From a virus (taxonomy: Duplodnaviria > Caudoviricetes), in IMG/VR virus record IMGVR_UViG_3300021516_000010, positions 1 to 43,465 of that record: 43,465 nt of DNA. One strand, 5' to 3'. Shown here piece after piece: positions 1 to 43,465 of the stretch (position 1 is its first letter; the number at the start of each line of letters is the position of its first letter). Both the position numbers and the translations under genes were made by a program. The notes below the pieces were generated by a model, which worked only from the letters and a program-made list of their open reading frames with translations, ran no database searches and was not told the DNA's origin.

Positions 1-9
1 GCCTTCTAT
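1..9. repeat. Left copy of 9-bp terminal direct repeat GCCTTCTAT
   Basis: Bases 1-9 are identical to bases 43457-43465. Confidence 0.8.
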
Positions 10-45
10 TATCAGAAATGAAAAAATTATTTTTTGGCACACCTG

Positions 46-114
46 CGTCGTACGACGTGGGTGAGAGTCTCGTACGTCGCCCGTACGTCGCAGCGCAGGC
101 GGGTCGCACGTACG
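46..114. repeat. Cluster of CGTACG palindromes near the genome end
   Basis: Perfect palindrome CGTCGTACGACG at 46-57, CGTACGTCGC twice (71-80, 82-91), CGTACG at 109-114. Confidence 0.7.
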
Positions 115-183: not shown

Positions 184-828
184 TCATAGCGCCTTCAATC
201 GTTGCTGCAATTGCACGTAGAACTCCGCGAGTGGCTCTAAGTCTCGCATCACCGCCACTACGCGGTCTCTGTCCCAATGAATTGGCGGGTCTGCGGATAA
301 CGTCTGCTTACTGTAAGCTTTAAACCCGTTGACCACTGCCCCTATACCGACAGACTCGGGCGCTCTCTTTGTTGATGCTCGCAACTCTGCGGCGCCGCGA
401 ATATGACGACGCAACTCAGAGACGCTCCACTCTTCTTCAACAGCACGCTCTAACCAATCGCGTTGCTTATCGGGCGAGAGCTTACACACTTCGCGGTGGT
501 GAGAATAGGTGAGTTCTCGACGGCGTAATTCAGGCTGAACGTTGTTGCAGATGTATGCAATGTTGACCAGTGATTGGTATTCGTACTTGTCACCCAGCAC
601 CGTCAAAGCTTCGCGATATTTAGTCCCGTATATCCGTTGGCCAGCGTTGAGCCAATCACCCAACCAGAACAGCGAAGATTCTTGCAACTGCGTAATGCTA
701 GCGCCAAGTTTCTTCCATTCTGTGAATGTCATCGCCTGATCAATAGTGATACTGACTTCACCTATAGCGACACAATCGTGTGTGATTCCCGTTATTGCGA
801 GAGACGATTTATTTGACGAGCTTTTCAT
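184..828 (-). CDS. LmbU-like putative DNA-binding regulator
   Basis: FWLGDWL...Y...YQSLVNIAY...RRRELTYSHHREV...WLERA...W-S-SELRR resembles the LmbU family pattern (WWLGDW, YQTLRNYA, LSFxHHAEV). Confidence 0.6.
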   Translation of the reverse strand: MKSSSNKSSLAITGITHDCVAIGEVSITIDQAMTFTEWKKLGASITQLQESSLFWLGDWLNAGQRIYGTKYREALTVLGDKYEYQSLVNIAYICNNVQPELRRRELTYSHHREVCKLSPDKQRDWLERAVEEEWSVSELRRHIRGAAELRASTKRAPESVGIGAVVNGFKAYSKQTLSADPPIHWDRDRVVAVMRDLEPLAEFYVQLQQRLKAL

Positions 829-1273
829 TGCGGCGATTGCTTATAGCGTTCTCGGTATGTCCGCGTTCATCTGGGACTGGCAGTCCAAATTGAGCGCAGA
901 ACTTTTCAATGTGTGATCGCGCGGTCGTACGCGATACTCCATATTTTTGAGCGAGTGTGGCGCCAGTCCACCCATCACGCACTCGCAATCTTGATGAATA
1001 CGCTGCGACATCGGCGGCGAATCTAGCGTCTACAGCTTCAGTAATGTACGACAAAAGCGGGTGAAATCCAGTCATCACCATATCACGTGTTTGACTTTTA
1101 ACTTCGTCTAAAACGATTCGTCGAGCCTCATCATCGCGCCCGTGCCGAACTGCTTCGACAACTTCGTCTACCCAATCTTCACCACATGTGAATTCTTGAG
1201 TATACTGCGACAACGGCGACGTCGCTGAGTCTAGCTTGATTTCGACTTTGGGTTGGTACGTGGTTAAGCCCAT
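809..1273 (-). CDS. Hypothetical protein with C-terminal HTH
   Basis: 154 aa, overlaps both neighbours; TGATLAQKYGVSRTTARSHI is HTH-like. Confidence 0.6.
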   Translation of the reverse strand: MGLTTYQPKVEIKLDSATSPLSQYTQEFTCGEDWVDEVVEAVRHGRDDEARRIVLDEVKSQTRDMVMTGFHPLLSYITEAVDARFAADVAAYSSRLRVRDGWTGATLAQKYGVSRTTARSHIEKFCAQFGLPVPDERGHTENAISNRRNEKLVK

Positions 1274-2109
1274 ATTTCTCGAAGCTCAAGATTACTTAGT
1301 TTGCGTTGGTCATCTAAGAACTGAATGAATTTGTCAGGCGTCGCCCACTCTTTATGGACGCCATTTGGTTGTAGAAACTCAAGGTCGAACAGCAACATAG
1401 ACCGGTGTTGCTTCTCAATCTTCACATTGTAGTCGTAGACACACCGATGAGCTCCTTCGAAATCGCGATCGTACAGATGCATAGACCCGGCGGTGTAGTA
1501 CATATTACCCAATGTGAGATTCGCTAAGCGCTCGTCTGTTTGGCGTAACTCTAACAACATGTGGAACGACATGCAAGAGAACGAGAAAATGTCGTACGCC
1601 CATCCGAGCCAGAGATCGCTCGATCGCATATTGTATACCGCATGCAATGCGCCATCGCGGATGATCCATTGGATAGTCAATGAGCAAGGCAAGTCGCGAG
1701 TGTCTGGTGGATTCGCTACATCCCAAAACGTCAGCACGGCTTGACGAGTGTCATGATCTCGGCGAAGCGCTCGAAGAATTCGTTCTCGTTGCGCTACGTA
1801 ACGCTTTCCATACGCTCCGAAAAACGTCACTCCGTCGTCTGAATACGCTACGATGTTTTTCGACACTTCGTGAAGTGTGGCTACATCATCGCGACCAGTA
1901 AGCATCCACCAAGCTTCGGTGAACGCGAATTTCAACGAGAGCTTACGTTCAGGTAAGACGATCAGCGGATCGTTCATATCGACGACCGCGCGGCCTTGAA
2001 GCACTTCAAGAATTGGGAGTCCTCGCGGCACTCGCGCGGCGCCAGTGTTGAGCGTTAATTGGAGCAAGTCGCGCCAAATTTCAGTAACGGAAATAGGTCG
2101 AAGTTTCAT
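1264..2109 (-). CDS. Thymidylate-synthase-fold enzyme, probable dCMP hydroxymethylase (or dCMP methylase)
   Basis: TS motifs GAYG, DTRQA, DLPC (catalytic Cys), MRSSD, GSMHLY. The specificity position reads AYD (Asp) instead of the PFN (Asn) of dUMP-specific TS. Confidence 0.8.
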   Translation of the reverse strand: MKLRPISVTEIWRDLLQLTLNTGAARVPRGLPILEVLQGRAVVDMNDPLIVLPERKLSLKFAFTEAWWMLTGRDDVATLHEVSKNIVAYSDDGVTFFGAYGKRYVAQRERILRALRRDHDTRQAVLTFWDVANPPDTRDLPCSLTIQWIIRDGALHAVYNMRSSDLWLGWAYDIFSFSCMSFHMLLELRQTDERLANLTLGNMYYTAGSMHLYDRDFEGAHRCVYDYNVKIEKQHRSMLLFDLEFLQPNGVHKEWATPDKFIQFLDDQRKLSNLELREIWA

Positions 2110-2111
2110 GA

Positions 2112-3296
2112 TTAGATTTTGGTGACTGTCATTGCGGCTTTGTGCATCTTCTTGAAGACGACATTCGAATCACACATTTCGCGAGCTTGTTCCCACGCTT
2201 TCGTTCGATACTTTTCGTAAATGTCTTTGTGTGCTAAGTGCTTCATCGCCTCAATCGTCGCCATCATACCTTCGCGAGCGCAAGAAACTACGGCGAGTTT
2301 AGGAGCACAATGTTTGATCCAATGAGAGTCGAAGACGCCGACCGTTCCAACCGCAATCGCTTCAGCCATGGAATACTCCATCATGTTCTCTCCGTAATAA
2401 GAAGCATCGAGATGATAGAAGTCTGCGCCAAACATCGACTCAGCGAGACGAGGCAACCCGTCTTCGCCCATTCGAGTATACGGACCATACACCAACAGTT
2501 TGTCCTTGGGTATCGGCTTAGTGTGCTTTTCAACGATGCCGTTCTTGGGATGCACTTCGAAGATGCAATCGCGTTGCTTATCTCGAATCGCTGGGTCTTC
2601 ATAGAAGAGTTTAAGCGAACCAAGCGATCGTTCAACGCCTCGCATTTCGACGGCGAAGCCTGCATTTCTAAACTTATCAAAATGATCGACTAATCGTTGA
2701 GGGTCTTTGAATGTAGCGAAGCGCCCGAAGTACGTGATACACTTCTTCTTTTCTTCGAATGACCGCCACATCTTTCGGTAACCGTCGAAGTTGAAGCCAT
2801 TACCCACAGTCATGATGGGCAAGCCGGGAACGAACTCTCGCACCATTGTAGCATATTTGCACGTTTTCGTGAAGGTGAAAGTAGCATCGACATTCCGCAA
2901 CAACTCAAACATTCGGTAGTTACGATTGATCGAATGAATCTTGTGGTCGTTCTGATGGGCGATCTTAATGGGCTTAGTGATCTCTTGCATCATCTGCAAG
3001 AACCGAGTACAGAAGATTTGCGAATGATTCTTCGAAGGCCATGATTGAAAGTAAACGATGTCGTACTCTTCGTTGATCTTCTTAGCCGTAGCTGACGCAG
3101 TTGACGCATCGAACGTTCCGGCAAGTTCTAAAGGTTGGGCCAGTCGTCGTGGCCAAAGTTTGTCGGTGCTTGCGTAAACATCGCACACCATTTTTTGTAA
3201 GCGATACCACGCTTGTTCTTCAATGACGTAACGGGTGACGCCGCAGCCTTCGACGCCGCGACCGAGAATTATTGCTATTCGAGGTTGTGTTTTCAT
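2112..3296 (-). CDS. agt: DNA alpha-glucosyltransferase-like glycosyltransferase (GT-B)
   Basis: N-terminal IILGRGVEGCGVTRY matches T4 AGT (ARGLEGCGVTKF); also YFGRFATFKD and MEYSMAEAIAVGTVGVF (cf. EYTHLE...GTIPVF). Confidence 0.82.
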   Translation of the reverse strand: MKTQPRIAIILGRGVEGCGVTRYVIEEQAWYRLQKMVCDVYASTDKLWPRRLAQPLELAGTFDASTASATAKKINEEYDIVYFQSWPSKNHSQIFCTRFLQMMQEITKPIKIAHQNDHKIHSINRNYRMFELLRNVDATFTFTKTCKYATMVREFVPGLPIMTVGNGFNFDGYRKMWRSFEEKKKCITYFGRFATFKDPQRLVDHFDKFRNAGFAVEMRGVERSLGSLKLFYEDPAIRDKQRDCIFEVHPKNGIVEKHTKPIPKDKLLVYGPYTRMGEDGLPRLAESMFGADFYHLDASYYGENMMEYSMAEAIAVGTVGVFDSHWIKHCAPKLAVVSCAREGMMATIEAMKHLAHKDIYEKYRTKAWEQAREMCDSNVVFKKMHKAAMTVTKI

Positions 3297-3334
3297 AGTA
3301 AGGAAGTTGTCTAGGTGAGTGTTATAATTCGAAT

Positions 3335-3739
3335 TTAGCTAAAAGGAAACTCTTTCTTCATCAGATCATCAAATGATGGAGGGGACCAGTCGTCTGGTTT
3401 TCTCAAATCGAAGGGGTCATTCCGCTTCGATTCTTGCGCAGACGTCACTCGCTGCTTTTTCAAATTCGCTTCATGAACGCGCCTCCAACACTCGTTCAAT
3501 GGAATTTCAAGAATCGCGGCCATGCCACACAACACATAAATCAAATCGACGATCGCATCAGCCGCATCATGTCGTCCAAGCTTTTGGCTGAACAGCGCAT
3601 CGATCAACTCGGATCGCTCCTCATCCATGTGAATTGCTTTCTTGCGTACTTCATCCCACATCGTCGTTTCGTCGACGATCACATCATTCAATTGAAACTT
3701 AGCGCGGAACTCTCTCACATCATCATAGAACGTTTTCAT
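3335..3739 (-). CDS. MazG-like/PRA-PH all-alpha dNTP pyrophosphohydrolase
   Basis: EExxEL...DAIVDLIYV...VHEANLKK...KPxDWxPP motif set. Confidence 0.85.
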   Translation of the reverse strand: MKTFYDDVREFRAKFQLNDVIVDETTMWDEVRKKAIHMDEERSELIDALFSQKLGRHDAADAIVDLIYVLCGMAAILEIPLNECWRRVHEANLKKQRVTSAQESKRNDPFDLRKPDDWSPPSFDDLMKKEFPFS

Positions 3740-3749
3740 AGGTAATCAG

Positions 3750-4055
3750 GTGGCTTGGTCATTATTTGGTCATTATTGTGGCTTGGTCATTATATCCAGT
3801 GAAAATGGACATTCATAAACCGTTGGATATCAATAGCATTTTGAACAGAATGTCCATTATACCATTAAAATATATAGAGTCCTCGTACACACACTCCCCT
3901 GCTTGCATGCAGGTAGGGGTGGGTGCCTGTACAAAGAACTTCGAAATGAATGGACAAATGGACATAATGGCCATGATCCGCTTCAAAGCATTGGTGATTA
4001 GTGACTTAGACGACTTGGTCATTATTTGATTCAGTGTCCATAAGTCCATTATTTG
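3750..4055. repeat. Iteron-like TTGGTCATTAT repeats, candidate replication origin
   Basis: TTGGTCATTAT at ~3755, 3766, 3783 and 4015; related TCCATTAT and inverted AATGGAC copies; AT-rich patch; immediately downstream of the primase-helicase gene. Confidence 0.5.
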
Positions 4056-4259
4056 GGCCCTCCTTGTGCACGGTAGTGCGGACCTGCTCCCCAGCGAGGG
4101 TGTGCGACCCGTACCAGCACGACCCGCTCCCCAGTGCTGGTGCAGGAGGGTCGTAGGGTTGAAACTTTGCTCGAACCAGTCATTTCTGGCCCTCAGACTG
4201 TCGCCTATGATCTCGAACTGATTGTCCATATGGATTTATTAGTTTCTAACTAAGGCCTC

Positions 4260-6473
4260 TCAGGCCTTCTTCCGTGCTTTTGCCTTAATTTGTGTCATTT
4301 CTGACACTTGAGGTTGCAAGTTGTCGCAATATGCGATGAAATCTTTCTTCGTTATCGACCACATTCTGAGGCCGTCTTTTCGTATCTGAGTCAATGGAAC
4401 GCCTTGGCCAGCCAGTTGGGCAATGAAGCGCCCCACACCTCGCGGCGTATAATGCGAAGTGAGAGCTCGCATTCCGTCATCTCCCGCCATGTCTCGCAAC
4501 ATCGTACTAGCGTTGCCAATCCATTCATGCGTCTTGAACTCGTTAAACTGCGAGGACATGAACATGTGAAATGCTTCATAGAATGAATGCGAAGACGTTA
4601 CTTCTTTCGCAGCTTGGAGCAATTCAGGATGATGGAAGCTCGTCACGCCAAAGCGACTCGCTTCGATCGTAGCGTCTGGCGGCTCCCAATCTTCGAGCCA
4701 TTTCGCAAATGCCGGCAGTTCTTCAGCCAATGCTTTATCGAGCTTATGGAAATCGTAACCCTCTCTCGTCGGCGCCGCTTTATACAAACTCACTTTGTCT
4801 AACAGCGACTGTTCAATATCAGGTAGAATGCGTAACGATTCGTTATCCAAATTGCATGTCACGATGATACGACCGAGCCATGGGATCATGCGAGCTCGTT
4901 TGAATTTGTCGTCGAACAAGAAGAGTTGGTTGGCCGGCATCTTTTTGATCAACGCTGAGTAATTGGCGTGTGCTTTGTCCTGGCCCGGCCTCGTATCGTC
5001 AATCGTCCAAATGGGAACTGCGAACAAGTGCCCAGTGAATCGCGTTTCGCCAAGTAGATACGACGAACAATCAGACGAGCCACCCGCGAGTCTCGCTATC
5101 ACTACGTTGCTCATAAACGTTTTACCGCTCTGCACTTCACCTGCTATAAATACTACCTGGCCCGGCAACGGACGCTTTTCCTTGCACGACACGTAGAATC
5201 TTTTCAACCACGACAAGTAAAACTCCAACTGCGTAGCTCCGTGGCTCGCATCGATTTCATCAAAGAACCCGTCTAAGTAGTGGGCTAGCGTCGAGAAGCC
5301 GTCGCCCCACTTTTTGCACTTCGCGGCAGGTAGGATCAATTGGACAGACGCGACATTTAAGAACCGCTTCATCTGTACTAAGTTAATGCCCGTTGGAAAG
5401 TGTGGCATAGGCACCGCCGCATCGACTCTCATCGTCGTTTGCACCGTCGCTAACGCTTTTTCCATTTCAGAAAGTCCGCCTCCTTCTGGCGCCTCATGCG
5501 TCAGGCCACGTTGCTTAAGTTGGAGCTGAATATCTTGGCGACTGAAGTCAAACCAATCGTTGCCGAGCTTTGTCCAATAGGTCATTCCATCGAAGAACGT
5601 ATCTTCAATAGCGCCACCGACACGGTTGTCTTCGTAGTTTTTCGTGAAGTTGGATCCAAAGATTTCAGACCACGATACGAAAGACCTTGAGCCGGTGAAA
5701 CATTGCATTCCAGTTTCACGGACGATTGCGGCGGTATGGTTATCAGCAGACGCATCCCAGAAGCGAACGCCACGAGCTCCCAAATCAAATGGGCCTACCC
5801 AACGATTTGGGAAGCGCGATTCAAGCTCTTCGGCGACAATCCGAATCGGGAGAACCGGCGCTCCGCGCGGCCTCCATTTGACTTTGGACGAAGCTTCAAC
5901 CAAAGCGTGCATCAAAAGCGAATGTTGAATAGGCGTACCTTCTTCTAATTTCGTCCAATGAAGCGGTGCGCAATAGAGAAGCCCAGTGTCTTTTAGAGCG
6001 CTCTCGTCTAAGCCTTCGCAGATATGCCGGCAGCGAAAGTCTTTAGTCAACTGTTGAAGGAATGCTACGTGAGCTGGGCCGTGCACCATGATGGGCTTTT
6101 CAAATTCGTAGACAAAGCGTACTCCATTTGAAAAAGTCTTGGCGATTAAAGTAGGGACTGGCACGCCGCGGCGTTGGCATTGGCGAACCACGAACTGGCC
6201 CACCTCCTCTTGTGATTCTTCGACTGGCGAATCGAAATCAATCACCAACACTCGCATGGTGTGAGCAGGATTTGAGGAGTTGACGCGAGCGTTTGCTGCG
6301 ACTCCTTCATACGGCGAATACACCTGCCATTGAGTATTTGGGTCGGTGATCCACGTAGAGAAATCTTGCTTTGACTTTAAATTGGCTGGCCACGACGAAC
6401 GCTTCCATTTCGTAAGGCTCGAAGATTCTGATGTAGATGACGAGACATTTGCGAGAGTGAATAATTGCAACAT
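4260..6473 (-). CDS. Primase-helicase (AEP-like N-terminus, SF3/DUF5906-like P-loop C-terminus)
   Basis: VIDFD acidic motif; Walker A AGEVQSGKT, Walker B WTIDD, IIVTCN sensor; 737 aa. Confidence 0.75.
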   Translation of the reverse strand: MLQLFTLANVSSSTSESSSLTKWKRSSWPANLKSKQDFSTWITDPNTQWQVYSPYEGVAANARVNSSNPAHTMRVLVIDFDSPVEESQEEVGQFVVRQCQRRGVPVPTLIAKTFSNGVRFVYEFEKPIMVHGPAHVAFLQQLTKDFRCRHICEGLDESALKDTGLLYCAPLHWTKLEEGTPIQHSLLMHALVEASSKVKWRPRGAPVLPIRIVAEELESRFPNRWVGPFDLGARGVRFWDASADNHTAAIVRETGMQCFTGSRSFVSWSEIFGSNFTKNYEDNRVGGAIEDTFFDGMTYWTKLGNDWFDFSRQDIQLQLKQRGLTHEAPEGGGLSEMEKALATVQTTMRVDAAVPMPHFPTGINLVQMKRFLNVASVQLILPAAKCKKWGDGFSTLAHYLDGFFDEIDASHGATQLEFYLSWLKRFYVSCKEKRPLPGQVVFIAGEVQSGKTFMSNVVIARLAGGSSDCSSYLLGETRFTGHLFAVPIWTIDDTRPGQDKAHANYSALIKKMPANQLFLFDDKFKRARMIPWLGRIIVTCNLDNESLRILPDIEQSLLDKVSLYKAAPTREGYDFHKLDKALAEELPAFAKWLEDWEPPDATIEASRFGVTSFHHPELLQAAKEVTSSHSFYEAFHMFMSSQFNEFKTHEWIGNASTMLRDMAGDDGMRALTSHYTPRGVGRFIAQLAGQGVPLTQIRKDGLRMWSITKKDFIAYCDNLQPQVSEMTQIKAKARKKA

Positions 6474-6552
6474 ATAAAATGGTAGGGTTGGCGCGTCAGA
6501 GCGCCTTTGAGATCAAGGAACGCGGCGAAGATTTGAGGACGACAAGGAAGAC

Positions 6553-7215
6553 TCATGCCGACAGCGATTTGCGAGCTTTTTCTTGGGCGCGAAGTTTCTT
6601 CTCTTTCATTTCTTTTCGCGCCGCACCCACCAATCGAGTTCTAAAGCCGTCCATTGCTCTTAGTGGCTTGTCCCACTTATACATGACGCATTCGATCTTC
6701 TTTTCAAACGGGTATTCAGTGCTCGAACAATGAGATAGTAAGTCAGATAGATCGCACGCGGCGAGACAGAAAGATTGAACGCGGTCTGACACGCCACCTG
6801 CCATGTTCGCAAGTTCTTCATACAAAGGACCGGTGAATGTAGTCTTAAACGTCTGACCCGGTTTGCACACGTTGGCTTGCTTGATCAAATGTGGAACGAG
6901 CTTTTTCGCCATGATCATAGCGCGCGTTGGAGGGCGTTCAGCCCGCTCTTTCGCTTTTCGTTCTTGCCGACGAGCTTCGGCATCTTCGTCTGACTCGTCT
7001 GACTCGTCTTCATCGACTGGTTCAGGCACGGGTTGTTTAGTCTCCTTCGGTTCGCGAATAGGAGTGTCGTCGATCTTTTCGTCTTCTACTGTTGAAGCTT
7101 TGCGAGAGCCGAACGACAGTTTTACTTTTGGAGGTGGCGCACTTGGTTGAGACGATTCAGACGTCGTTATAGGAGAGGGCGGGAGAACAGATGCTTTTTT
7201 GAAGGTGAAGGCCAT
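6553..7215 (-). CDS. Hypothetical protein with low-complexity Pro/acidic N-terminus
   Basis: 220-aa ORF on the coding strand with a TTCCTTCCT-ATG leader. Confidence 0.75.
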   Translation of the reverse strand: MAFTFKKASVLPPSPITTSESSQPSAPPPKVKLSFGSRKASTVEDEKIDDTPIREPKETKQPVPEPVDEDESDESDEDAEARRQERKAKERAERPPTRAMIMAKKLVPHLIKQANVCKPGQTFKTTFTGPLYEELANMAGGVSDRVQSFCLAACDLSDLLSHCSSTEYPFEKKIECVMYKWDKPLRAMDGFRTRLVGAARKEMKEKKLRAQEKARKSLSA

Positions 7216-7256
7216 AGGAAGGAATTTGATTCTATCATTACCGAATCATTGTGGAA

Positions 7257-7484
7257 CTACTTTTTTCTATTTGACTTCAAGCGCATGATAAAACAATCGA
7301 TAGTGCCTGAATAATCGAGAACCACATCATGAGCTGAACACCACTTTTCGAGCTGTTCGCGTCTTGACAGATGAGTAAAGCCAGCGACGACAAGTGGCGA
7401 CTTATTCCAACTGCGCTGACTGAGCGTGATGTGTTCGCTACGTCGTTGAGTTAAACGTTCAAGGATGTTATCTAATAAAGTCAT
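7257..7484 (-). CDS. Hypothetical protein
   Basis: 75 aa; 4-bp overlap with the upstream ORF. Confidence 0.55.
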   Translation of the reverse strand: MTLLDNILERLTQRRSEHITLSQRSWNKSPLVVAGFTHLSRREQLEKWCSAHDVVLDYSGTIDCFIMRLKSNRKK

Positions 7485-7669
7485 TTGGTTAGAGTGATGT
7501 TGAATTCTTTAGCCCATTCGCGAATTGACCGCATAGACGCGTGTAGTCGCTTTTCGACGATTTTGCATCGATAACCACTACGACGTAAGTCGTTAGCTTT
7601 TAGTACGATAGCTCTACGCTCCTCGTCTGTGCGTTGCGAGTTATGAATTAGGATTCGATTGATGCTCAC
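7481..7669 (-). CDS. Small hypothetical protein, HTH-like
   Basis: 62 aa, coupled to the methyltransferase stop; basic helical sequence ending SIREW. Confidence 0.55.
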   Translation of the reverse strand: MSINRILIHNSQRTDEERRAIVLKANDLRRSGYRCKIVEKRLHASMRSIREWAKEFNITLTK

Positions 7670-8835
7670 GGTAGTAGTGCGAAGTGTTGATTGTGGTTAC
7701 GTTGAAGAGCAGCCTCGCCTTTTTCAAAAGGAAGCTCGCCGTTGAGATATTTGAGCACGCCTGTCGCCATGTCACGAGCAGTGACAACCGGGACATTCTG
7801 GCAGACATGGTTCAAGTTTCGTTTGGGGTCTAACAGCTCGAAGTCGTACGGCATGCCCATCAACGACATGCATTCGCGGTAAGTGAGGTGCCGGTCTTTC
7901 GTTGGGTGAGTGAGCAGCGTAGGGAAGTGTCCGACGAACGCTCCGATTTTGTGCTTAGGTATTTCAACGCCTCGCCTCATGACGTTCTTGCCTGACGCCA
8001 ATTTGGCATCCATCGCTTGACACCTCGCTGCGGCTTTTTCGTAACCCTCTTTCTTTAACCACTTTGCGGCTGGCCCAAATGTTCCGTCCTTGTCTTCAGT
8101 CCAATGGATCGGACCCATCGTCCTTGGAATAAGCGCGTGGAACTGTTTGTGAGTAATACCACCTTCAAGTTTCTCAAGAACGTAGCGATACATCGGGTCA
8201 TCTGACGGAGTCTTCTCATTTGTCACATCATTTTGAATAGCAGCGCGAGCTTCGCGATCGTGGCTAGAGAAGAATTGCTCAATTGTTTGCTCAGCTCGCT
8301 TGACGAATGGAAGCACAGGGATGCGATTCTTTTCGCGCCACAAGAAGTAGAACGAGCGCTCGCGGACTTGGGGCAACCCGTGCAACCACGACTGCGTCCG
8401 ATACAATGTCATCGTATACCCGTTAGCTTTAGCGATCGCTCGCATATTTGCTACGACTGGCTCGCCTAGACGTGTAGCGAGACACGGAGCGTTTTCACCC
8501 CACAGAACGCGTGGCCGAAGGTTTTCCACCACGTACTTCGTACTAATAGTCAACCAATCGTTTGTTTTTGAATCAGAACTAGGTGATGGAGACAGCGTGG
8601 ACAAACCGGCACATGGGCACACAGTATTGACCACATCGACTTTTGGGAGCTTGGGCACGTTGTCGACGTCGACTTGATAGTATGGAACGTCTTTGAAATG
8701 ATGGCGACAGTGCGAATCGTTTGATGAGAACGGCGAGTACGAGAGGAAGAAACTCGGGTCACTCCCGAACGCTTGAACTTGGCCGATGGTTTCTCCACCG
8801 ATGAGTGGAATGATAGAGGCGTGTTTGATGCTCAT
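7666..8835 (-). CDS. Divergent C5-cytosine DNA methyltransferase-like protein
   Basis: Motif IV CPCAGLS, VI GENAP, VIII QVRER, IX LTYRECMSLMGMP, X QNVPV; the motif I FxGxG is replaced by IPLIGG. Confidence 0.8.
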   Translation of the reverse strand: MSIKHASIIPLIGGETIGQVQAFGSDPSFFLSYSPFSSNDSHCRHHFKDVPYYQVDVDNVPKLPKVDVVNTVCPCAGLSTLSPSPSSDSKTNDWLTISTKYVVENLRPRVLWGENAPCLATRLGEPVVANMRAIAKANGYTMTLYRTQSWLHGLPQVRERSFYFLWREKNRIPVLPFVKRAEQTIEQFFSSHDREARAAIQNDVTNEKTPSDDPMYRYVLEKLEGGITHKQFHALIPRTMGPIHWTEDKDGTFGPAAKWLKKEGYEKAAARCQAMDAKLASGKNVMRRGVEIPKHKIGAFVGHFPTLLTHPTKDRHLTYRECMSLMGMPYDFELLDPKRNLNHVCQNVPVVTARDMATGVLKYLNGELPFEKGEAALQRNHNQHFALLP

Positions 8836-9167
8836 GAATTGTCTCGGTTTTTGAAAGAATTATCTTTGAAGTGACTGTACGTGAGTAGGAACGGGAGAAT
8901 CGGCGAAATGATAATTACTACGACGATAGCAATTGTGATTCCAACGAAGTAACCGACGACGCTAAATAAACGCGGAGTGACTGGCATTTCAAAGTGAGGT
9001 TCTTCAACGCTGCGCTGGACGTTCAACATGAAGTCGCACCATAGCGCGTCAACCCAACGAGAAGCTTTTGACGATTTGATGCATTCGTCGACCCATACTT
9101 TTGCGGGTTGACTCATTGCGAGTTCGACGAGGTCATCGTCTTTTGGTTTTATAGAACGGTAGGACAT
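8832..9167 (-). CDS. Hypothetical membrane protein
   Basis: 111 aa with a C-terminal hydrophobic segment; overlaps both neighbours. Confidence 0.55.
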   Translation of the reverse strand: MSYRSIKPKDDDLVELAMSQPAKVWVDECIKSSKASRWVDALWCDFMLNVQRSVEEPHFEMPVTPRLFSVVGYFVGITIAIVVVIIISPILPFLLTYSHFKDNSFKNRDNS

Positions 9168-9702: not shown

Positions 9703-11547
9703 TTACTTCTTGTAGTATTTGGAGGCTTCGAACTCGACGTCCATAGGACAACCTTCGAGCCATTCGGGCGTCTGTCGAAGGATTTTAGCGATGGCTTGTG
9801 GATCCACCTTGTCGTCGACTTCGACAACGATTTCATCGTGAATCGACATTAGCGGGTCGTACCCGGCGTCAATCAAATTCAAGATGCCGTCGCGTAGAAC
9901 ATCTCGGGCAGTTGCTTGAATTAGGTTTTCAGTAAGCAACCCGCCATAAATAGACCGGTGAGCGTAACCCATCCACGACTGAGCCATGACTTGCGTCCCG
10001 AATTTGGGATGCTTCATACGCTTCAAGTTGAAGTACCGCAATGGACGGCCAGATGGCAACTCAATAATCCAAGCGCCAGACGGGTTGGTGACAGCGTTAG
10101 TTTTTGAAACAGCCTCAGCGTGCAACCTGTCCCATAAAGCTACGACACCTTTGTTTGTAGCGCGATACGCGAGGACTGTCTTTTTACTTTCGGCCAGTGT
10201 GATGTCGTAGTTCGCCATTGTCTTTGCGGCATGAACGAATTTCGGAGCGCCGCATTGGTAACCGAGTCCGAGGACACGCGCTTTTGCGAGACGATAGAGT
10301 AGGTCGTTTTCTTTCTTCAACACTCCGCCTTTCCAATCCATCGTCTGTCGAGCATGAGCTTCATACACGCTCATTCCGGTAGCGAGGAGTTTGAGAGCTG
10401 GTTCATCATCGGCAAACCACAACAAGATGCGAGCTTCGATTTGGGCCCAGTCAGCGATGATCAATTTCTTCTTCGGTCGCGAAATGATAATGTTACGTAA
10501 GTTAACGCCACAGATGGGTTCGCGTGGAAAGTTCTCCATGTTCAATCCACCGTCGCCAGAGAACCGGCCCGTATGGGCGCCGTAATACTTCTTAGAGAAA
10601 GTCAAGATGCCATCGCACTGACGCATTCGAATCGCATGCAACACGGCTAACACGCGGTTGACGCTTCGATATTCTTGCATCGCTTTGACGAATGGCGCTT
10701 TGTCAGAGTACTCATCGAGCCACATGTCAAAATCAACGGATGTCTTTGCCGTCGATTTGGGTGGAGGAATACCAACATCACGGCAAGCTTGGGCAAGAGC
10801 TTTCGATGACGTGGGTTTCGAATCTGAGTCATCATTCAACCACGGGATTATTTCACTGACTTCGTTGAGACGAGTCGATAACTTACGAATGCTTGTGTTG
10901 AGCAATTTGACGTCAATCGCCACGCCTCGCATCCCACTCTCAGTCGTCCATTGAGACAACCGCCACTCTTCAACGGGCATCATTTCGTGAAAGTCTTCAT
11001 AAAGTTGCCACGCATAGATTGAATCGTGCATAGCGTACTCAGCCAGCGCGTTGGCTTTGCCTTCACGTATGGCGTCGTTAAACGTCCGGCCCTTCATCCA
11101 ATCTCGCATGCCTTTTGACAACTCGATGTCGAACAGCGCTTTGCAAGCGCCGGCCAAACTACGAGGAGCGCCAAGGAATGCGGCAAGCGCGGCGGTATCA
11201 CGCCAAGACCCAAGGTCTAACGACTTCGGACATTTCTTCCACCAACTTTCTCGTTTGGCCGCGTTAAAGATCGTCCAATCAAACTGAGCGTTGTGGGCCA
11301 CGACTTGGCGACCTTTAAGACTCGCCCAATCAAAGTCTTTAGGGTGACCCACGTACTTGATAGACCCCTCTGGCCCGTCGTAGACAGACACCATGTAAGC
11401 TTCAAATTTGGGATGGCGAGTATATGCTTCGGCTCCGAGCGTGGAGACAGAGCATTCATTGTCATAGTAAGACTCGAAGTCTACGACGACGTGTGAAAGA
11501 GCGACGGGTTTTCGTGTCGCGACCGGTTTCTTTTTGAGCGTGGGCAT
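9703..11547 (-). CDS. polA: Family A DNA polymerase with 3'-5' exonuclease
   Basis: Exo motifs DFES, AHNAQFD, YAMHD; polymerase motifs HTGRFS, ADWAQIEAR, KARVLGLGY, SIHDE. Confidence 0.95.
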   Translation of the reverse strand: MPTLKKKPVATRKPVALSHVVVDFESYYDNECSVSTLGAEAYTRHPKFEAYMVSVYDGPEGSIKYVGHPKDFDWASLKGRQVVAHNAQFDWTIFNAAKRESWWKKCPKSLDLGSWRDTAALAAFLGAPRSLAGACKALFDIELSKGMRDWMKGRTFNDAIREGKANALAEYAMHDSIYAWQLYEDFHEMMPVEEWRLSQWTTESGMRGVAIDVKLLNTSIRKLSTRLNEVSEIIPWLNDDSDSKPTSSKALAQACRDVGIPPPKSTAKTSVDFDMWLDEYSDKAPFVKAMQEYRSVNRVLAVLHAIRMRQCDGILTFSKKYYGAHTGRFSGDGGLNMENFPREPICGVNLRNIIISRPKKKLIIADWAQIEARILLWFADDEPALKLLATGMSVYEAHARQTMDWKGGVLKKENDLLYRLAKARVLGLGYQCGAPKFVHAAKTMANYDITLAESKKTVLAYRATNKGVVALWDRLHAEAVSKTNAVTNPSGAWIIELPSGRPLRYFNLKRMKHPKFGTQVMAQSWMGYAHRSIYGGLLTENLIQATARDVLRDGILNLIDAGYDPLMSIHDEIVVEVDDKVDPQAIAKILRQTPEWLEGCPMDVEFEASKYYKK

Positions 11548-18225: not shown

Positions 18226-18723
18226 CTAACCTATGTAATAACCTAGCCATTCGGGACGCGACTGAGCTTTAGCGTATGACAAGCCCAACCCTGCGATTTT
18301 TTCGACTGCGTAAAAGGCGCGATACGCGTCAACAGTATCCTCACGCTTATACGCGTCTGGCATGCATTGCGGCGGCAAAGTGAACGCCGCGACTGGGAGG
18401 TCGGGTCGATGTAGGTCTAACCATTCAACGACTGAGCGTGTCTTGTGGCGACGTCCGTAACGCTTTTCATACTCGTCAAGAATACTAAACGCGTGTTTGA
18501 CTAACCAATCATAGTTATTCGTAGACGCTCGCGCCCAAATAGTCGATGGATGGTTTGTGTGAGTTCGCTTATACGGCGCAGACCCGCCGTTCGACCAATG
18601 AGCTGTCGACAACATCTGAGCCGATTCGATTCCCATCTTTACTACGTGCTTGTCGCACAAGTAACTAGCGGCGACATTTGGATGTGGATCTAAAAAGAAG
18701 ATGTTCATGGTGTTAGCCGGCAA
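18226..18723 (-). CDS. Pyrimidine-dimer DNA glycosylase (DenV/Pyr_excise)-like protein
   Basis: MNIFFLD..P...A..LCDKHVVKM..ESAQMLST...YK.TH.NHP...W...NY.WL...PQCMPD.Y; probable start at MNIF. Confidence 0.8.
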   Translation of the reverse strand: MPANTMNIFFLDPHPNVAASYLCDKHVVKMGIESAQMLSTAHWSNGGSAPYKRTHTNHPSTIWARASTNNYDWLVKHAFSILDEYEKRYGRRHKTRSVVEWLDLHRPDLPVAAFTLPPQCMPDAYKREDTVDAYRAFYAVEKIAGLGLSYAKAQSRPEWLGYYIG

Positions 18724-20183: not shown

Positions 20184-20906
20184 CTATTGGAGTATGTTCA
20201 TCATTAGCTTTCGCCGGTTAAGCATTTCATTGCGGTCGGCAGCAGACTGCTTAGCGCGCCGATGAACGAGAGCGTCTAACGTGTCTAACGCGTCGGCCGC
20301 CGAAACAGGATGCTCAAAAATATCGTGGTGAACGACTTCGTATTGATGAGGAAACGTCGTACGCATCGAGCATAATCCACCGTGCTGCGACAGCCGATGA
20401 CCCAAACCTTTCGCGAAAAAGTTAACATCGTCAAAGTCGCGAGCATGGAATCCTACGACACGACGGTACAATTCAGCTGCGTGCTTGAGGCGGTCGTCGG
20501 ATTCATATAGTTGAGACACCCCTTGGCCGATCGTTCGATGGTAAGATTCAACAGCGTTAGCGACAGACGGGCAACACATGACGTACACCGTTGGGACTGT
20601 CATAAACATTTCAAACCACAACCGCGAGTAAATCGTCGATCGTGTTTGATTTGGACGATACACTGCAGAGTATACTTCCTCTGAAATCCAATGACGATCG
20701 ATGATGGTCAGGCCGCGGTGGTCAATGGCTTTCGACGTAGCTAAAAATTGAAACGGCGCTAAGTTGCGGCGCTCGCGTAGGTGCATTCGATGAACGTTTG
20801 AATAGCGCCAGTTTTTGCGACTCGTTGCTTCAGACTCGATTTGCGAAGCTAGTGTAGTTTTACCAGACGCGTCTGGCCCTTCTAAAATGATGATACCGCG
20901 GTGCAT
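20184..20906 (-). CDS. Deoxynucleoside monophosphate (thymidylate-kinase-like) kinase
   Basis: IILEGPDASGKTT P-loop and IIDRHWISEEVY. Confidence 0.8.
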   Translation of the reverse strand: MHRGIIILEGPDASGKTTLASQIESEATSRKNWRYSNVHRMHLRERRNLAPFQFLATSKAIDHRGLTIIDRHWISEEVYSAVYRPNQTRSTIYSRLWFEMFMTVPTVYVMCCPSVANAVESYHRTIGQGVSQLYESDDRLKHAAELYRRVVGFHARDFDDVNFFAKGLGHRLSQHGGLCSMRTTFPHQYEVVHHDIFEHPVSAADALDTLDALVHRRAKQSAADRNEMLNRRKLMMNILQ

Positions 20907-32681: not shown

Positions 32682-34421
32682 TTAGTCTTCGCTTTCTACA
32701 GTTGGACCCTGAATTGGTCCTTTGAGTGTCCAATAACCGCCACGTTTTAACAGTTGGAATGAATACGAGCGCCAAGTATCAAGATCGATTGGCATAAGAG
32801 AAGATACCCCGTACGGCATCTTAACCATAGAGCCAAGAGAAAGTCTAGGGTTCGATTGAACCCACCCAATTGCTACCTCAAGCCTATCCATGTTGCAACC
32901 GCTTTCTCCATTGCTGGATATATCAAAAGTAGTCGTTTCACTAAGGTATCCGTAGTAGAACCTAGAACCGCTATCAATATCAATTGTGACATTGCCTGTC
33001 GCAAAGGGAATATGCACCACCCCCGCATCAAGTATCGTTACACGCCACATTAAGTCATCACCGAGTTGAATACGAACACGAGATCGTGAAGGTACAGCAA
33101 ACCAATCACGTTCAGAACCACTAGGGGGCAAAATGGTGGTACCATCAACGCCAGTATAAAATCCGTTGGTGTAGCCATTGGAGTTGTATCCATAGAAATC
33201 AATGATCGTGCCAACACGGGAGGCAACCACTTCTGGTAGCTGAACCCACTGATCGTTACCGTCGTAGCGAATCGCCTTATCGTTGTAAGTGACTACGTCT
33301 CCATCGCTAAGAACGCGGAAATTTCCAACAATACCCCAACCAGTCGAATCTTCTGTATTATCTACGCACTCCCAGCGCACTCCATTCTTAGACTCAAACA
33401 CAGTTCCTACTACCACACCCTTAGTCCTATCAAGAGTTGGCTGAGGTATTTCCTCCCAAGTTGATTTAATTATACTTACAGCATATGGCGAGTCGGCGCT
33501 TAAATACCACATGCGTCCTTCTCTCCAGCGTGCAACTACAGCAGCAGAGCACACAAGATCAATGCCAGTGCCGCCTGGATTGGCGCGGAGTGAAGAGAGG
33601 TTGTCGAAGGCGATGACTGCGCCAGAGTCCATGGTGCCACCCGCGAGAGGCAACTTGGCATCTAAGTCATCTTGTAGATCAGTGACGTCAGCGATAGAAT
33701 GCGTGTGGCTTGAAGCAGCCTTGGCATCTAAGTCATCTTGTAGATCAGTGACGTCAGCGATAGAATGCGTGTGGCTTGAAGCAGCCTTGGCATCTAAGTC
33801 ATCTTGTAGATCAGTGACGTCAGCGATAGAATGCGAATGAGACGACGGCGGAAAAGTCGAAGGCTTACCTGTTACATCTGACCACGCTACAGCTACCGAC
33901 AACGTGATTGTTTTTAACGTATCATTTACCACGCGAGTTATGAGTCCACCCGCTACGAGAATTCTTGCTTTGAGCCAGGTCCACAGCAAATCTTCAGAAG
34001 CCGTTGGTGGTTCAGTTCCGTCGCGCACTACAGAATTGATCACGCGAGTCGGCAACAGTTTTGACGTAACTAACTCTGACGAATGCGTCAAATACAGTTG
34101 AGCGACTGCGTCAACATGAGAAGTCGTACCGAGAGCTGTCCGCATTTCGGTTGTGTCGACTGTGACGGCCATCGCAGCCGACTTACTATCATTGGTTAAC
34201 GACCACGACTCTGCCGTAGCTAAGACGCTCGTAAACGAGGGAAACGTTCCTATCGCGAATGAAGCTGTCGCGCCAGACAGCGCTAACTCGCCACCTCCTG
34301 GCGCTACAAAAACGATCGTCAAGCTTTCAATCGAACTCGTCAAATACAAAACGGCGCTCACGCGCTCGTCAGTCAGACTCTTAACAAACCGCCGAAGAGA
34401 TGGTGAATAATAAAGAGTCAT
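32682..34421 (-). CDS. Tail/neck fibre protein with His-rich phage tail repeats
   Basis: WSDVTGKPSTFPPSSHSH plus (SIADVTDLQDDLDAK)x3 and LPLAGGTM. Confidence 0.8.
   Translation of the reverse strand: MTLYYSPSLRRFVKSLTDERVSAVLYLTSSIESLTIVFVAPGGGELALSGATASFAIGTFPSFTSVLATAESWSLTNDSKSAAMAVTVDTTEMRTALGTTSHVDAVAQLYLTHSSELVTSKLLPTRVINSVVRDGTEPPTASEDLLWTWLKARILVAGGLITRVVNDTLKTITLSVAVAWSDVTGKPSTFPPSSHSHSIADVTDLQDDLDAKAASSHTHSIADVTDLQDDLDAKAASSHTHSIADVTDLQDDLDAKLPLAGGTMDSGAVIAFDNLSSLRANPGGTGIDLVCSAAVVARWREGRMWYLSADSPYAVSIIKSTWEEIPQPTLDRTKGVVVGTVFESKNGVRWECVDNTEDSTGWGIVGNFRVLSDGDVVTYNDKAIRYDGNDQWVQLPEVVASRVGTIIDFYGYNSNGYTNGFYTGVDGTTILPPSGSERDWFAVPSRSRVRIQLGDDLMWRVTILDAGVVHIPFATGNVTIDIDSGSRFYYGYLSETTTFDISSNGESGCNMDRLEVAIGWVQSNPRLSLGSMVKMPYGVSSLMPIDLDTWRSYSFQLLKRGGYWTLKGPIQGPTVESED
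33654..33835. repeat. Perfect 66-bp tandem repeat, ~2.8 copies
   Basis: Units start at 33654, 33720 and 33786 and are identical at the DNA level. Confidence 0.95.
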
Positions 34422-37042: not shown

Positions 37043-37687
37043 CTAAGACTTCAACATCTCATGGGCGTCTTTCGAAGAACCGCCACCTTTACGAGGACCT
37101 GACCCAGGTCCACCAAATTGCTTAAGAGCAAAGCGACTCGCGGCCAGCCCAAAACCGCGAGTCGCCCCAACAACCGCCTCACCCAACGAGGCCATCTTTT
37201 TCACAGACGGGTCTTCGTCTTTAGCAGAAAATAGTCCATGCTTGTTCGCAGCAGGTTCAGTGACGATGTCTGCCGAAAACAACTCGCTGCACCGCGCGAA
37301 TGTGAGTGATCCAACTTTTTGATCTTCGCCAGCAAAATTCACTGAGAGACCGAAGGTGTCCGGAATTTTCTCAGCCATGTCGAAAAGCTTTTCGCCGTCT
37401 TTCTCAGATGCGAAGATTTCAAAGTCAGCGCGAAGTTGATTGCCGTCAAGCTGAAAGTTCTTCAAGAATCCGACGGTGGATAGAACTCCACTTCCATGAT
37501 CGGCTTTCACTTTCACGCCGCCACCGTATTTCATAGCACACTCTTTCAATTGGTCAAGAGTAGTCGCGTCGACATGCAACCCGTGCCCGCGGGCTTCTCC
37601 GATAGTCGCTACGGAGACTCCGTGAATAGTGCGAGTTCCGCGATCGATGCCTTTGTGGACGAATTTAGATTCGAGAGTGTGTTTCAT
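37043..37687 (-). CDS. Prohead maturation protease (HK97/assemblin-like)
   Basis: GEARGH, KADH, VG, LRAD, FGLSV (Ser), SADIV.EPAAN; C-terminal KQFGGPGSGP tail. Confidence 0.8.
   Translation of the reverse strand: MKHTLESKFVHKGIDRGTRTIHGVSVATIGEARGHGLHVDATTLDQLKECAMKYGGGVKVKADHGSGVLSTVGFLKNFQLDGNQLRADFEIFASEKDGEKLFDMAEKIPDTFGLSVNFAGEDQKVGSLTFARCSELFSADIVTEPAANKHGLFSAKDEDPSVKKMASLGEAVVGATRGFGLAASRFALKQFGGPGSGPRKGGGSSKDAHEMLKS
37065..37123. repeat. 59-bp direct repeat, copy A (encodes KQFGGPGSGPxKGGGSSKDA)
   Basis: Matches 40461-40519 with 4 mismatches. Confidence 0.9.
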
Positions 37688-37713: not shown

Positions 37714-38196
37714 TTATTTGTTAAGTTCTTGTTTGTATTCGTCTAACTCGTCTTGCATATCGTCGACATAATTTTGTGGAGTCTCTCTGCGCAACGCGTA
37801 AGCACTATTTTTTGGAGCGTACGTTACATCTGAACTTTTAAATTGACTTTTGGTCGGGTCGATAATTTCGCCGTCTGCGGTCTCAATCCAAACGTGGTCG
37901 ACCTCATTTACTCCGTCGAGTACCCCACCACTGACTACGCTAAACCTAACCACGCCCGCTTCCAACGCGGCTTCGCTCACTCGAGCCACTTCTACCGCGC
38001 AATCGCCGTATTCAAACGAGCCGGCGCTATTCACAAAATCATTTATTTTGTGAAATACCGCCGATTTGGCTTCTGAGTCTTTTGTATTGTACGGCCCGCG
38101 AGACTCGCCCTCGCGAGGTCCCGATCCTGGGCCGCCGAACTGTTTGAGCTTAAACTCAAGCGCGTTCAATTCAAACTGGTAAAGTTGACGAATCAT
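37714..38196 (-). CDS. Transglutaminase/papain-like Cys-His-Asp domain protein with KQFGGPGSGP leader
   Basis: YGDC...DHVWIE...IIDPT..QF. Confidence 0.65.
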   Translation of the reverse strand: MIRQLYQFELNALEFKLKQFGGPGSGPREGESRGPYNTKDSEAKSAVFHKINDFVNSAGSFEYGDCAVEVARVSEAALEAGVVRFSVVSGGVLDGVNEVDHVWIETADGEIIDPTKSQFKSSDVTYAPKNSAYALRRETPQNYVDDMQDELDEYKQELNK

Positions 38197-40141: not shown

Positions 40142-40570
40142 TTAGTTGTCGTCGGGATGAATGCCGTGTTTCTTCAAAAACTTGTCGACTTTATACTTGG
40201 GCCCAGTGAACTTAAACACTGGGTTCCCGCCACCAGGTCCGTTTGGGTTAGTCATTACCGCTTTCACGCCCGCGTCATCTGCTGACCGCATGAAATTATC
40301 TTCTTGCCTCGAATTCTCAAACGCTACATCAACGTCGTCAATCGTTGTCGGTTCGACAGACAAGCCATTCTTTTCGGCGAATGCGGCGTCTTCTGCGTCC
40401 ATCAACGCTTGAATTCGAGCTGCTTCTTTTTCACGATACGTCGTAGCCGCTCGTGGATTCGCGTCTTTCGAAGAACCGCCGCCTTTTTGAGGACCTGACC
40501 CAGGTCCACCGAATTGCTTGAGTTTGAACTTAGACGCGTTAAGATTGAATTGCTGAAGTTGAGTGACCAT
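40142..40570 (-). CDS. Hypothetical protein with KQFGGPGSGP leader (putative capsid-internal protein)
   Basis: N-terminus aligns with that of 37714..38196; the rest is unrelated. Confidence 0.7.
   Translation of the reverse strand: MVTQLQQFNLNASKFKLKQFGGPGSGPQKGGGSSKDANPRAATTYREKEAARIQALMDAEDAAFAEKNGLSVEPTTIDDVDVAFENSRQEDNFMRSADDAGVKAVMTNPNGPGGGNPVFKFTGPKYKVDKFLKKHGIHPDDN
40461..40519. repeat. 59-bp direct repeat, copy B
   Basis: Matches 37065-37123. Confidence 0.9.
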
Positions 40571-40579
40571 AAGAATTAT

Positions 40580-43347: not shown

Positions 43348-43456
43348 GGTTATATACTGGTTGAGCTCGAGTGCACGAGTGCCTTCAGGATTCTCACACG
43401 GGTGTAACAGCGCGGTTTCGCTCGTCGTAAGAGAAACGAGGTGATTCGATATACCT

Positions 43457-43465
43457 GCCTTCTAT
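43457..43465. repeat. Right copy of 9-bp terminal direct repeat GCCTTCTAT
   Basis: Identical to bases 1-9. Confidence 0.8.

Follow-up and report, generated by a model that had tools for sequence, protein, structure and literature searches.

Does a small, lambda-like phage carry the means to replace its cytosines with glycosylated 5-hydroxymethylcytosine (hmC) in the manner of phage T4? The question is raised by a 43,465-nucleotide stretch of caudoviricete DNA (IMG/VR record IMGVR_UViG_3300021516_000010; hereinafter the window), whose left arm codes, in gene order, for a primase-helicase, a MazG-like pyrophosphohydrolase, a homolog of the T4 alpha-glucosyltransferase (AGT) and a thymidylate synthase (TS)-fold enzyme. 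Like every long gene of the window, these lie on the minus strand. A preliminary description of this DNA had proposed that the last three, together with a more distant deoxynucleoside monophosphate (dNMP) kinase and the phage's own family A DNA polymerase (PolA), form a T4-style pathway. All these genes are present and intact, with gaps of only 38 nt between the MazG-like and AGT genes and 2 nt between the AGT and TS genes. We consider it probable that they support the full chain from hmC to glycosyl-hmC, working like the T4 glucosyl-hmC system without being a member of it by descent. Moreover, an odd C5-cytosine methyltransferase (MTase)-fold gene, overlooked in the preliminary description, is a further recurrent member of the pathway.

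From the genes, their residues and folds, and their phyletic and contextual associations, we infer the following course of events. The TS-fold enzyme would convert dCMP to 5-hydroxymethyl-dCMP, which the phage's own kinase and PolA would build into DNA, while the MazG-like enzyme likely drains the dCTP (or dUTP) pool. The AGT homolog would then glycosylate the hydroxymethyl group, most likely with glucose taken from host UDP-glucose, thereby shielding C-containing sites from restriction; the MTase-fold protein would most likely act after replication on cytosines that escaped substitution.

The TS-fold enzyme is predicted to be a dCMP 5-hydroxymethylase

The TS-fold protein (1264..2109, minus strand; 281 aa; PF00303, 69 bits, above the curated cut-off) was aligned with enzymes of known product from GenBank (Escherichia coli numbering in brackets). 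Its catalytic set is complete: C142 (C146), E65 (E58), R162 (R166), H211 (H207) and Y213 (Y209). The positions governing specificity are occupied by R122 (R126), D139 (L143), S163 (S167), D165 (D169) and D173 (N177). According to published work, the N177D substitution selects dCMP, an acidic residue at 143 goes with hydroxymethylation and D169N is typical of hydroxylases (PMC13326640), while S167 and R126 select deoxyribose (PMC5175136). The combination D143/S167/D169/D177/R126 is that of T4 gp42, and the dCMP hydroxymethylation proposed earlier is upheld by it. In contrast, ThyA has L143 and N177, Xp12 N143, RB69 gp48 N169 and SPO1 gp29 N177. The D169N mark of 5-hydroxy-dCMP synthases such as RB69 gp48 is lacking (D165), as are both marks of the Xp12-type 5-methyl-dCMP synthases, namely a non-acidic residue at 143 and a dihydrofolate reductase (DHFR) partner (D139; no DHFR). 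MilA, the CMP hydroxymethylase of mildiomycin biosynthesis, shares D143 and D177 but differs from the window enzyme at the Ala176 and Lys133 that mark MilA/BcmA, where the latter has the deoxyribose-selecting pair S163 and R122. This signature speaks against a product of the dTMP, 5-methylcytosine (5mC), 5-hydroxycytosine or CMP type, and 5-hydroxymethyl-dCMP is very probably what the enzyme makes, a judgment that concerns the hmC step alone.

The D-S-D-D pattern recurs in 118 of the 120 homologs listed out of 728 found, the remaining two being pattern mis-hits. Among PDB entries the hydroxymethylase MilA ranks first (E 5e-22), with gp42 reaching just 4.5e-8. In a tree of 51 sequences the protein falls into a clade (support 99/97) with those of the phages AXL3, PW916 and HTVC200P, separate from Xp12 and excluded from the gp42 clade (100/100). 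By this phylogeny it is a member of a small-phage family (AXL3, HTVC200P) and no gp42 ortholog. Hence, the label "T4-style" holds as a functional analogy and fails as a statement of descent, the more so as the MazG-like protein is also unlike its T4 counterpart gp56.

Of the 559 IMG/VR loci recovered for the TS family, the best 80 include the same kinase family in 66 cases, a deaminase in 58, MazG in 52, PolA in 30 and an AGT in only two. A class I S-adenosylmethionine (SAM) methyltransferase family is likewise present in 58 of the 80 (e.g., L003 9668-10492 and L089 10847-11704). An Xp12-type DHFR is found in none of them, whereas in the 5mC phage Xp12 it adjoins the TS. These partner counts identify TS, kinase and MazG as a native small-phage cassette, to which the AGT is an add-on. 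Two further phages were considered as instances of the same system and rejected: LuckyBarnes, which combines a TS with a GT-A glycosyltransferase and PolA, has N177 and hence is a parallel of the 5-hydroxymethyluracil type, while Quenya, with L143/D177 plus a DHFR, is of the 5mC type.

The genome is closed and its gene absences can be read

The record is classed as linear, with a CheckV completeness of 69%. However, its first and last 9 nt (1..9 and 43457..43465, unstranded) are identical (chance 4.5e-6) and mark the point of closure, which precedes the small terminase gene by about 110 nt. A second strain, about 88% identical to the window and obtained from runs X3 and X4 of a separate study, provides a 3004-nt contig whose positions 3-2892 match window 40576-43465 and whose positions 2884-2975 match window 1-92; the two alignments were taken as one contig, size and depth being equal. 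As this contig bridges the right end to the left, the window ends join through the 9-nt overlap, and the genome is complete at 43,456 bp. The reading as an incomplete fragment was accordingly rejected. We do not claim the overlap as a cos site: Tn5 leaves 9-nt duplications, and Tn5 adapter ends are present in run X1. Another contig of the second strain (16,871 nt) covers window 185-9162 and retains the whole block with two short stretches replaced; AGT and TS proteins assigned to a contig of that length are 93% and 89% identical to those of the window. Pfam and PHROG scans of 53 open reading frames (ORFs) recovered a gpA-type terminase, a lambda portal and a tape-measure protein, with no match to a sheath or an integrase. 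The terminase, portal, tape measure and missing sheath fit a lambda-packaging siphovirus; thus, the earlier designation as a 43-kb lambda-like siphovirus was correct and the size is real.

Since the genome is closed, absences from it are informative. It codes for no DHFR, dCMP deaminase or ThyX, for which the positive controls matched in 10, 12 and 5 of 14 genomes, respectively. There is also no tblastn match to gp45, gp44 (both at E 0.01), gp56, beta-gt or TAGT. A TET-type oxidase was not detected by the scans of the 53 ORFs or with PF12851, though the latter negative is weak as its control was silent.

The AGT homolog and its sugar

The GT-B fold protein encoded at 2112..3296 (minus strand; 394 aa) is recognized by PF11440 (40.4 bits against a cut-off of 25) and phrog_2888 (E 5e-52) and bears the motif RGVEGCGVT at residues 13-21. 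It is 22% identical to T4 AGT. The top nine Foldseek matches of its model (pLDDT 88.7) are all T4 AGT (TM 0.81-0.86), as against no more than 0.64 for other GT-B enzymes, in agreement with the glycosylation step put forward earlier. The T4 residues G15, E22, R46, D115, H116, R204, K209, E306 and E311 are kept; in window numbering, the UDP-contacting and catalytic residues are G19, E26, R192, K197, E307 and E312. Neither Pfam nor tblastn revealed a sugar-nucleotide gene (epimerase, dehydrogenase or nucleotidyltransferase) in the closed genome, the tblastn queries having included RmlA-like, epimerase and UDP-glucose dehydrogenase sequences. Therefore, a host sugar donor is needed, and glucose, with host UDP-glucose as the simplest donor, appears the likeliest.

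In the fetched stretches of the best 80 of 271 AGT loci, 39 have a TS and 26 a C5-MTase of any kind, and 18 one of the IPLIGG type described below. The nearest AGTs (39-46% identity) are scattered over mixed phage types, from a 151-kb contig with a family B polymerase (L009) to 34-kb contigs such as L012 with the order AGT-TS(D)-MazG, and hence point to no single donor of the window AGT. The pairing of AGT and TS in small phages is thus not unique to the window. Indeed, contigs L012-L025, of up to about 34 kb, have an AGT directly followed by a distinct D143/D177 TS (with MazG in L012) and make up a second small-phage group of like design. In T4, AGT binds the sliding clamp gp45 (PMC13216743).

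MazG, kinase and polymerase

The MazG-like all-alpha NTP pyrophosphohydrolase (3335..3739, minus strand; PF01503, 40.3 bits against a cut-off of 21.3) has the acidic motif of the family, and its best matches are MazG proteins adjoining the same TS family. It has no detectable similarity to gp56 (BLAST E 0.35); its context makes dCTP (or dUTP) the likely substrate. The thymidylate-kinase-like dNMP kinase (20184..20906, minus strand) matches the thymidylate kinases of phrog_761 (E 6e-10) and has its P-loop at residue 10. PolA, with a 3'-5' exonuclease domain (9703..11547, minus strand; PF00476, 73 bits), retains intact exonuclease motifs and motifs A, B and C. Kinase and polymerase are as earlier described, and the proposal that incorporation takes place in a PolA replicon is supported. 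Motif B reads AKARVLGLGY, with a Leu, which may be of significance, at the position of E. coli F762.

An odd C5-MTase-fold protein linked to glycosyltransferases

The gene at 7666..8835 (minus strand) codes for a 389-aa protein of the C5-cytosine MTase fold (PF00145, 63.2 bits against a cut-off of 22). Its catalytic elements, P74-C75, E114 (EN) and Q156-x-R158-x-R160, are intact, and its model is an ordinary C5-MTase fold, with MET1, DIM2 and M.HhaI as top Foldseek matches. The SAM-binding motifs are altered. Motif I, whose consensus in C5-MTases is FxGxGG, reads IPLIGG, and motif X, where GN is expected, reads CQNV (IGNAV in HaeIII). A bulky residue replaces the motif I Gly in the enzymes of the window, T4-like phages, S-TIM5, XG4, phage G and loci L088, L094 and L274, most of which also have Gln for the motif X Gly while keeping the PC, E and RxR elements.

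An alignment-based scan recovered at least 562 relatives; single-protein scans of viral contigs had returned one distant MTase relative and no AGT relative, so that alignment queries were needed. The best 80 of these (38 clusters at 90%) have an AGT in 55 loci, a TS in 43 and a MazG in 27. Where the flanks are long (24 loci), a TS is present in every case, MazG in 22 and AGT in 17. The neighbors include UvsX and family B polymerases. In a quick tree (the AGT and MTase trees were both of this kind, with no bootstrap) the window protein nests among MTases of T4-like phages (47-54% identity, SH-aLRT 98). Of 79 complete relatives, 76 end in an LxxFF-like tail resembling that of gp43, whereas other ORFs do so in 78 of 617 cases. 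The window protein lacks this putative clamp-type tail and is about 11 residues shorter, a loss that would match a replisome without gp45.

In the related PolA phages L088 and L094, an AGT (26-28% identical to that of the window) is followed by an odd MTase (21-22%), and L274 has the order primase-MazG-odd MTase-sugar enzymes-another glycosyltransferase-kinase-TS. Within the primase lineage, all three loci with an odd MTase have a glycosyltransferase, as do the cultured phages G, S-TIM5 and XG4. Locus L170 (1234-13066) displays two odd C5-MTases, each adjoining a glycosyltransferase-like gene, along with a sugar isomerase, an epimerase, nucleotidyltransferases and a D177 TS. A predicted complex of the window AGT and MTase scored 0.00, which weighs neither way. 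S-TIM5 DNA is reportedly methylated at C after purines, and the sole PF00145 gene of that phage belongs to the odd family; on these grounds we rank ordinary back-up methylation of leftover cytosine above a new chemistry as the role of the protein. The TS of S-TIM5 (L001 11775-12611) has C143/H147/D177, the phage having an AGT and the odd MTase as well; its base may be something other than plain 5mC.

Palindrome usage is consistent with protected cytosine

C-containing restriction sites need no avoidance if the cytosine of the phage is modified. The window shows no avoidance of the 56 C-containing 6-bp palindromes (615 observed, 642 expected; O/E, the observed-to-expected ratio, 0.96). It does avoid the eight A/T-only ones (24 versus 44 expected; 0.55; Poisson p 8e-4), a value not reached by any of 10,000 randomly drawn sets of non-palindromic A/T hexamers. 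The primase family comprises 92 loci, 14 of which have a TS. The 47 that measure at least 12 kb and retain a near-full primase fall into 26 clusters. The C-palindrome ratio is 0.81-0.99 in the seven cassette-bearing clusters and the window (n = 8), as against 0.38-0.82 in the 18 without the cassette, and the contrast runs in the same direction at all three separate places on the primase tree. L265, a 5mC-type locus excluded from the test, has a ratio of 0.94. A pattern of protection by an MTase alone (RC-only) was not seen, palindromes with RC standing at 0.97 and those without at 0.92. The contrast constitutes indirect support for cytosine modification and offers a sequence-only indicator of it within a phage lineage.

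Across the primase lineage L261-L278 the cytosine cassettes are interchangeable: TS, kinase, Nudix and deaminase occur alone, with a class I methyltransferase, with AGT and the odd MTase, or with another glycosyltransferase, while L265 instead has a 5mdCMP-type ThyA. The Nudix hydrolase in these loci occupies the place of the window's MazG.

Weighing the alternatives

Several observations weigh against the proposed chain. The call between methyl and hydroxymethyl hangs mostly on one site, D here versus N in Xp12, and the literature searched holds no measured product for this TS subfamily. As the phage has neither dCMP deaminase nor ThyX, its dTTP must be supplied by the host. The occurrence of AGT next to the TS family in only two of 80 loci implies that glycosylation is optional in the family, and complete substitution of cytosine would leave an intact C5-MTase with little to act on. 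The structural matches of the MazG-like protein are confined to DR2231, presumably a dUTPase, and are weak (E 0.014-0.12). The p value of the palindrome contrast (2.6e-6) is inflated by relatedness, its "no TS" loci are partial stretches with differing hosts, and it is unable to separate hmC, 5mC and glycosyl-hmC; furthermore, A/T-only palindromes are avoided in the no-TS loci too (pooled 0.75), and the contrast is missing for 4-mers (0.89 in the window, 0.92 in the no-TS pool). Finally, of the three His residues reported to contact glucose in T4 AGT, His114, His116 and His140 (PMC6024577), the window protein keeps the second (H118) and has N116 and F142 for the others.

These last substitutions (H114N, H140F), with Phe at the 140 site in 22 of 94 AGT homologs, could mean that the hydroxymethyl group receives a different host sugar, such as GlcNAc or galactose, and phage glycosyltransferases do install diverse sugars (10.1101/2023.12.21.572611). 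The preliminary description had leaned this way, on a thin basis: Asn at the 114 site is the majority state (75 of the 94), H116, E22, R204, K209 and E311 are all kept and, unlike L274, L170, XG4 and phage G, the window has no epimerase, dehydrogenase or nucleotidyltransferase gene. We therefore hold another sugar to be unlikely, while giving it some weight. That the TS instead makes 5-methyl-dCMP as in Xp12, leaving 5mC in the DNA and the AGT idle or acting on another acceptor, draws on D177 being common to both enzyme types, on a palindrome signal that fits 5mC equally well and on the finding that five of seven tested deaminase-linked D177 TSs made 5mdCMP (10.1101/2024.12.05.627091), a deaminase being present in 58 of 80 loci of the TS family. 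It is made quite improbable by the acidic D139 at the 143 site (N in Xp12, L in L265 and Quenya), by the missing DHFR in genome and family and the separation from Xp12 in the tree, and by an intact, conserved AGT that needs a hydroxyl acceptor where no TET-type oxidase was found, with the PF12851 control silent. Even less probable is a plain nucleotide-supply set of dUTPase, thymidylate synthase and TMP kinase in a phage with canonical DNA. The database labels "thymidylate synthase" and "thymidylate kinase", the resemblance of MazG to DR2231 and the original interpretation of the AXL3 genes (PMC7504290) agree with such a set, but N177D, L143D, the lack of DHFR, the adjoining AGT, the palindrome contrast and the restriction resistance of AXL3 do not.

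A further alternative retains the hmC step and concerns the odd MTase, which might work without SAM-dependent methylation, either supplying the glycosyltransferase by hydroxymethylation of leftover cytosine or attaching a nucleophile to hmC, with an undescribed base as the product. C5-MTases are capable of SAM-free chemistry with aldehydes and thiols; in the enzymes listed above the Gly of motif I and, in most of them, that of motif X are replaced while the Cys/Glu/Arg core is kept, and the protein tracks glycosyltransferases, adjoining AGT in T4-like loci and pairing with AGT in L088 and L094, with another glycosyltransferase in L274, in duplicate in L170 and in all three MTase loci of the primase lineage. 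Against this stand the ordinary fold, an odd MTase in L109 with no glycosyltransferase in the available stretch, and S-TIM5, where the reported methylation fits an ordinary activity of its only PF00145 protein, even if bisulfite-type reads of that phage would not separate 5mC from hmC. On balance we regard SAM-free action as unlikely, if far from negligible. It is similarly doubtful that the window holds the smallest clamp-free module in which this protein serves SAM-independently as a DNA hydroxymethyltransferase feeding the glycosyltransferase or as the maker of a new hmC-derived base, with PolA phages of Verrucomicrobiota having rebuilt the pair of glycosyltransferase and odd MTase on no fewer than three occasions, each with its own donor. 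The chain from hmC to glycosyl-hmC, with back-up methylation by the MTase-fold protein, is the reading we retain below.

Host and other features of the genome

The predicted primase-helicase (4260..6473, minus strand; a weak DUF5906 match) serves as a lineage marker. Of 12 relatives in genome contigs, 11 are in contigs titled Verrucomicrobia, Chthoniobacterales, Akkermansia, Pontiellaceae or Kiritimatiella, and going by these titles of metagenome-assembled genome contigs the host is likely a member of Verrucomicrobiota. The runs containing the window stretch are from lake water, with no RNA datasets among those listed; X1 may be the source run, and X3 and X4 contain the related strain. A protein like LmbU-family regulators, with a ParB-type helix-turn-helix (184..828; NF038070, 120.9 bits with a cut-off of 125), is encoded between the primase and terminase genes, as in the relatives L276 and L351. 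In the non-coding stretch between this gene and the terminase start lies a perfect (GCGTGA)x10 array (116-176), preceded at 1-115 by repeated CGTACG/GTACGTCG words; the array is also present in the second strain and may serve in packaging or regulation. A DenV-like Pyr_excise protein (18226..18723, minus strand) is of uncertain membership in the module; in several T4-like loci a homolog immediately precedes MazG-TS-AGT-MTase.

The head-region genes at 37043-37687, 37714-38196 and 40142-40570 have a common 'FKLKQFGGPGSGP'-like segment, which also appears as a joint at 40461-40519 in the contigs compared, and the tail-fiber gene (PTR domain) has a 66-nt repeat in 2.8 exact copies at 33654-33835. 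No Shine-Dalgarno-like purine run precedes the five modification genes (upstream of 2109, 3296, 3739, 8835 and 20906). A 138-aa ORF (3813-4229) has no family match and is probably not a gene. Promoter and terminator scans of the window gave numbers close to chance (11 versus 9.7 and 14 versus 10.5), and its dinucleotide ratios were uninformative.

Relationship to known systems and implications

With the T4 glucosyl-hmC system (gp56, gp42, gp1, alpha-gt and gp43/gp45) the window shares the predicted chemistry, an AGT homolog and the diagnostic TS residues of gp42. It differs in having a TS that is no gp42 ortholog, a MazG unrelated to gp56 by BLAST, PolA without gp45 or gp44, neither beta-gt nor deaminase, an extra C5-MTase-fold gene and a genome of a quarter the size. 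Closer in general make-up are the Stenotrophomonas phages AXL3 (a siphovirus) and PW916 and the Pelagibacter podoviruses HTVC200P and HTVC119P, small PolA phages with a kinase and the same TS family (40-42% identity, 41% for AXL3; D143/D169/D177), AXL3 and PW916 also having MazG. AXL3 DNA resists 35 of 37 restriction enzymes, being cut only by TasI and Tru1I, both with A/T-only sites (PMC7504290); the accessible text of that report does not name its base. Unlike the window, these phages have neither AGT nor the odd C5-MTase in the fetched stretches, and AXL3 further codes for a dCMP deaminase, a class I methyltransferase and ThyX. Since the combination of this TS with the kinase and MazG is common among small PolA phages, cultured ones included, the system is less surprising than it had at first appeared.

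The cultured Bacillus phage G likewise combines a TS (gp319; D143/D177), AGT (gp306 and gp313) and an altered-motif C5-MTase (gp301) in one region with a kinase (gp315), a deaminase (gp317) and a nucleotidyltransferase (gp309), and provides the best cultured match to the window AGT (27%, E 4e-40). However, phage G is a jumbo phage (498 kb) that has DnaE, a pair of AGTs and genes for sugar nucleotides, and the sugar specificity of gp306 is described as uncharacterized (PMC6024577). Uncultured aquatic T4-like phages with the order MazG-gp42-like TS-AGT-IPLIGG MTase share the four-gene logic and include the source clade of the window MTase, but they have the gp42-type TS, a family B polymerase and, in 76 of 79 cases, the clamp-type MTase tails that the window enzyme lacks.

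Clusters of TS with glycosyltransferases and modified phages with TS, MazG and PolA are already known as published classes: ThyS-linked contigs make up about 28% of GT-B contigs (10.1101/2023.12.21.572611), MetaGPA has tied the D177 TS to modified-C contigs (PMC8670742), and TS, PRA-PH (MazG-like) and PolA rank near the top of the domains neighboring deaminases in MetaGPA contigs (10.1101/2024.12.05.627091). The GT-B profiles of the first study derive from beta-GT-like enzymes, unlike the window's AGT, and neither an AGT-family enzyme of a small siphovirus nor the odd MTase is described in the accessible text of that study and the MetaGPA papers. The literature searched, mostly without subscription papers, yielded no pathway of the AGT type for small phages or for those of Verrucomicrobia. 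What is new here is a predicted glycosyl-hmC system that is chimeric, clamp-free and minimal, with an extra MTase-fold enzyme.

The gene set looks to have been assembled from two sources, with TS, kinase and MazG apparently from the family common in small PolA phages, and with phages of other types as the apparent donors of the C5-MTase-fold gene and, with less certainty, of the AGT. Being short, single-copy and devoid of clamp tails, the six genes provide a simple test kit for the product of a very common TS family, the reading and writing of hmC by PolA and the action of a widespread odd C5-MTase. More generally, the system suggests that T4-type glycosyl-hmC protection needs no large genome, family B polymerase or sliding clamp, and that such protection can arise by combining a small-phage hm-dCMP cassette with imported DNA-modifying enzymes.

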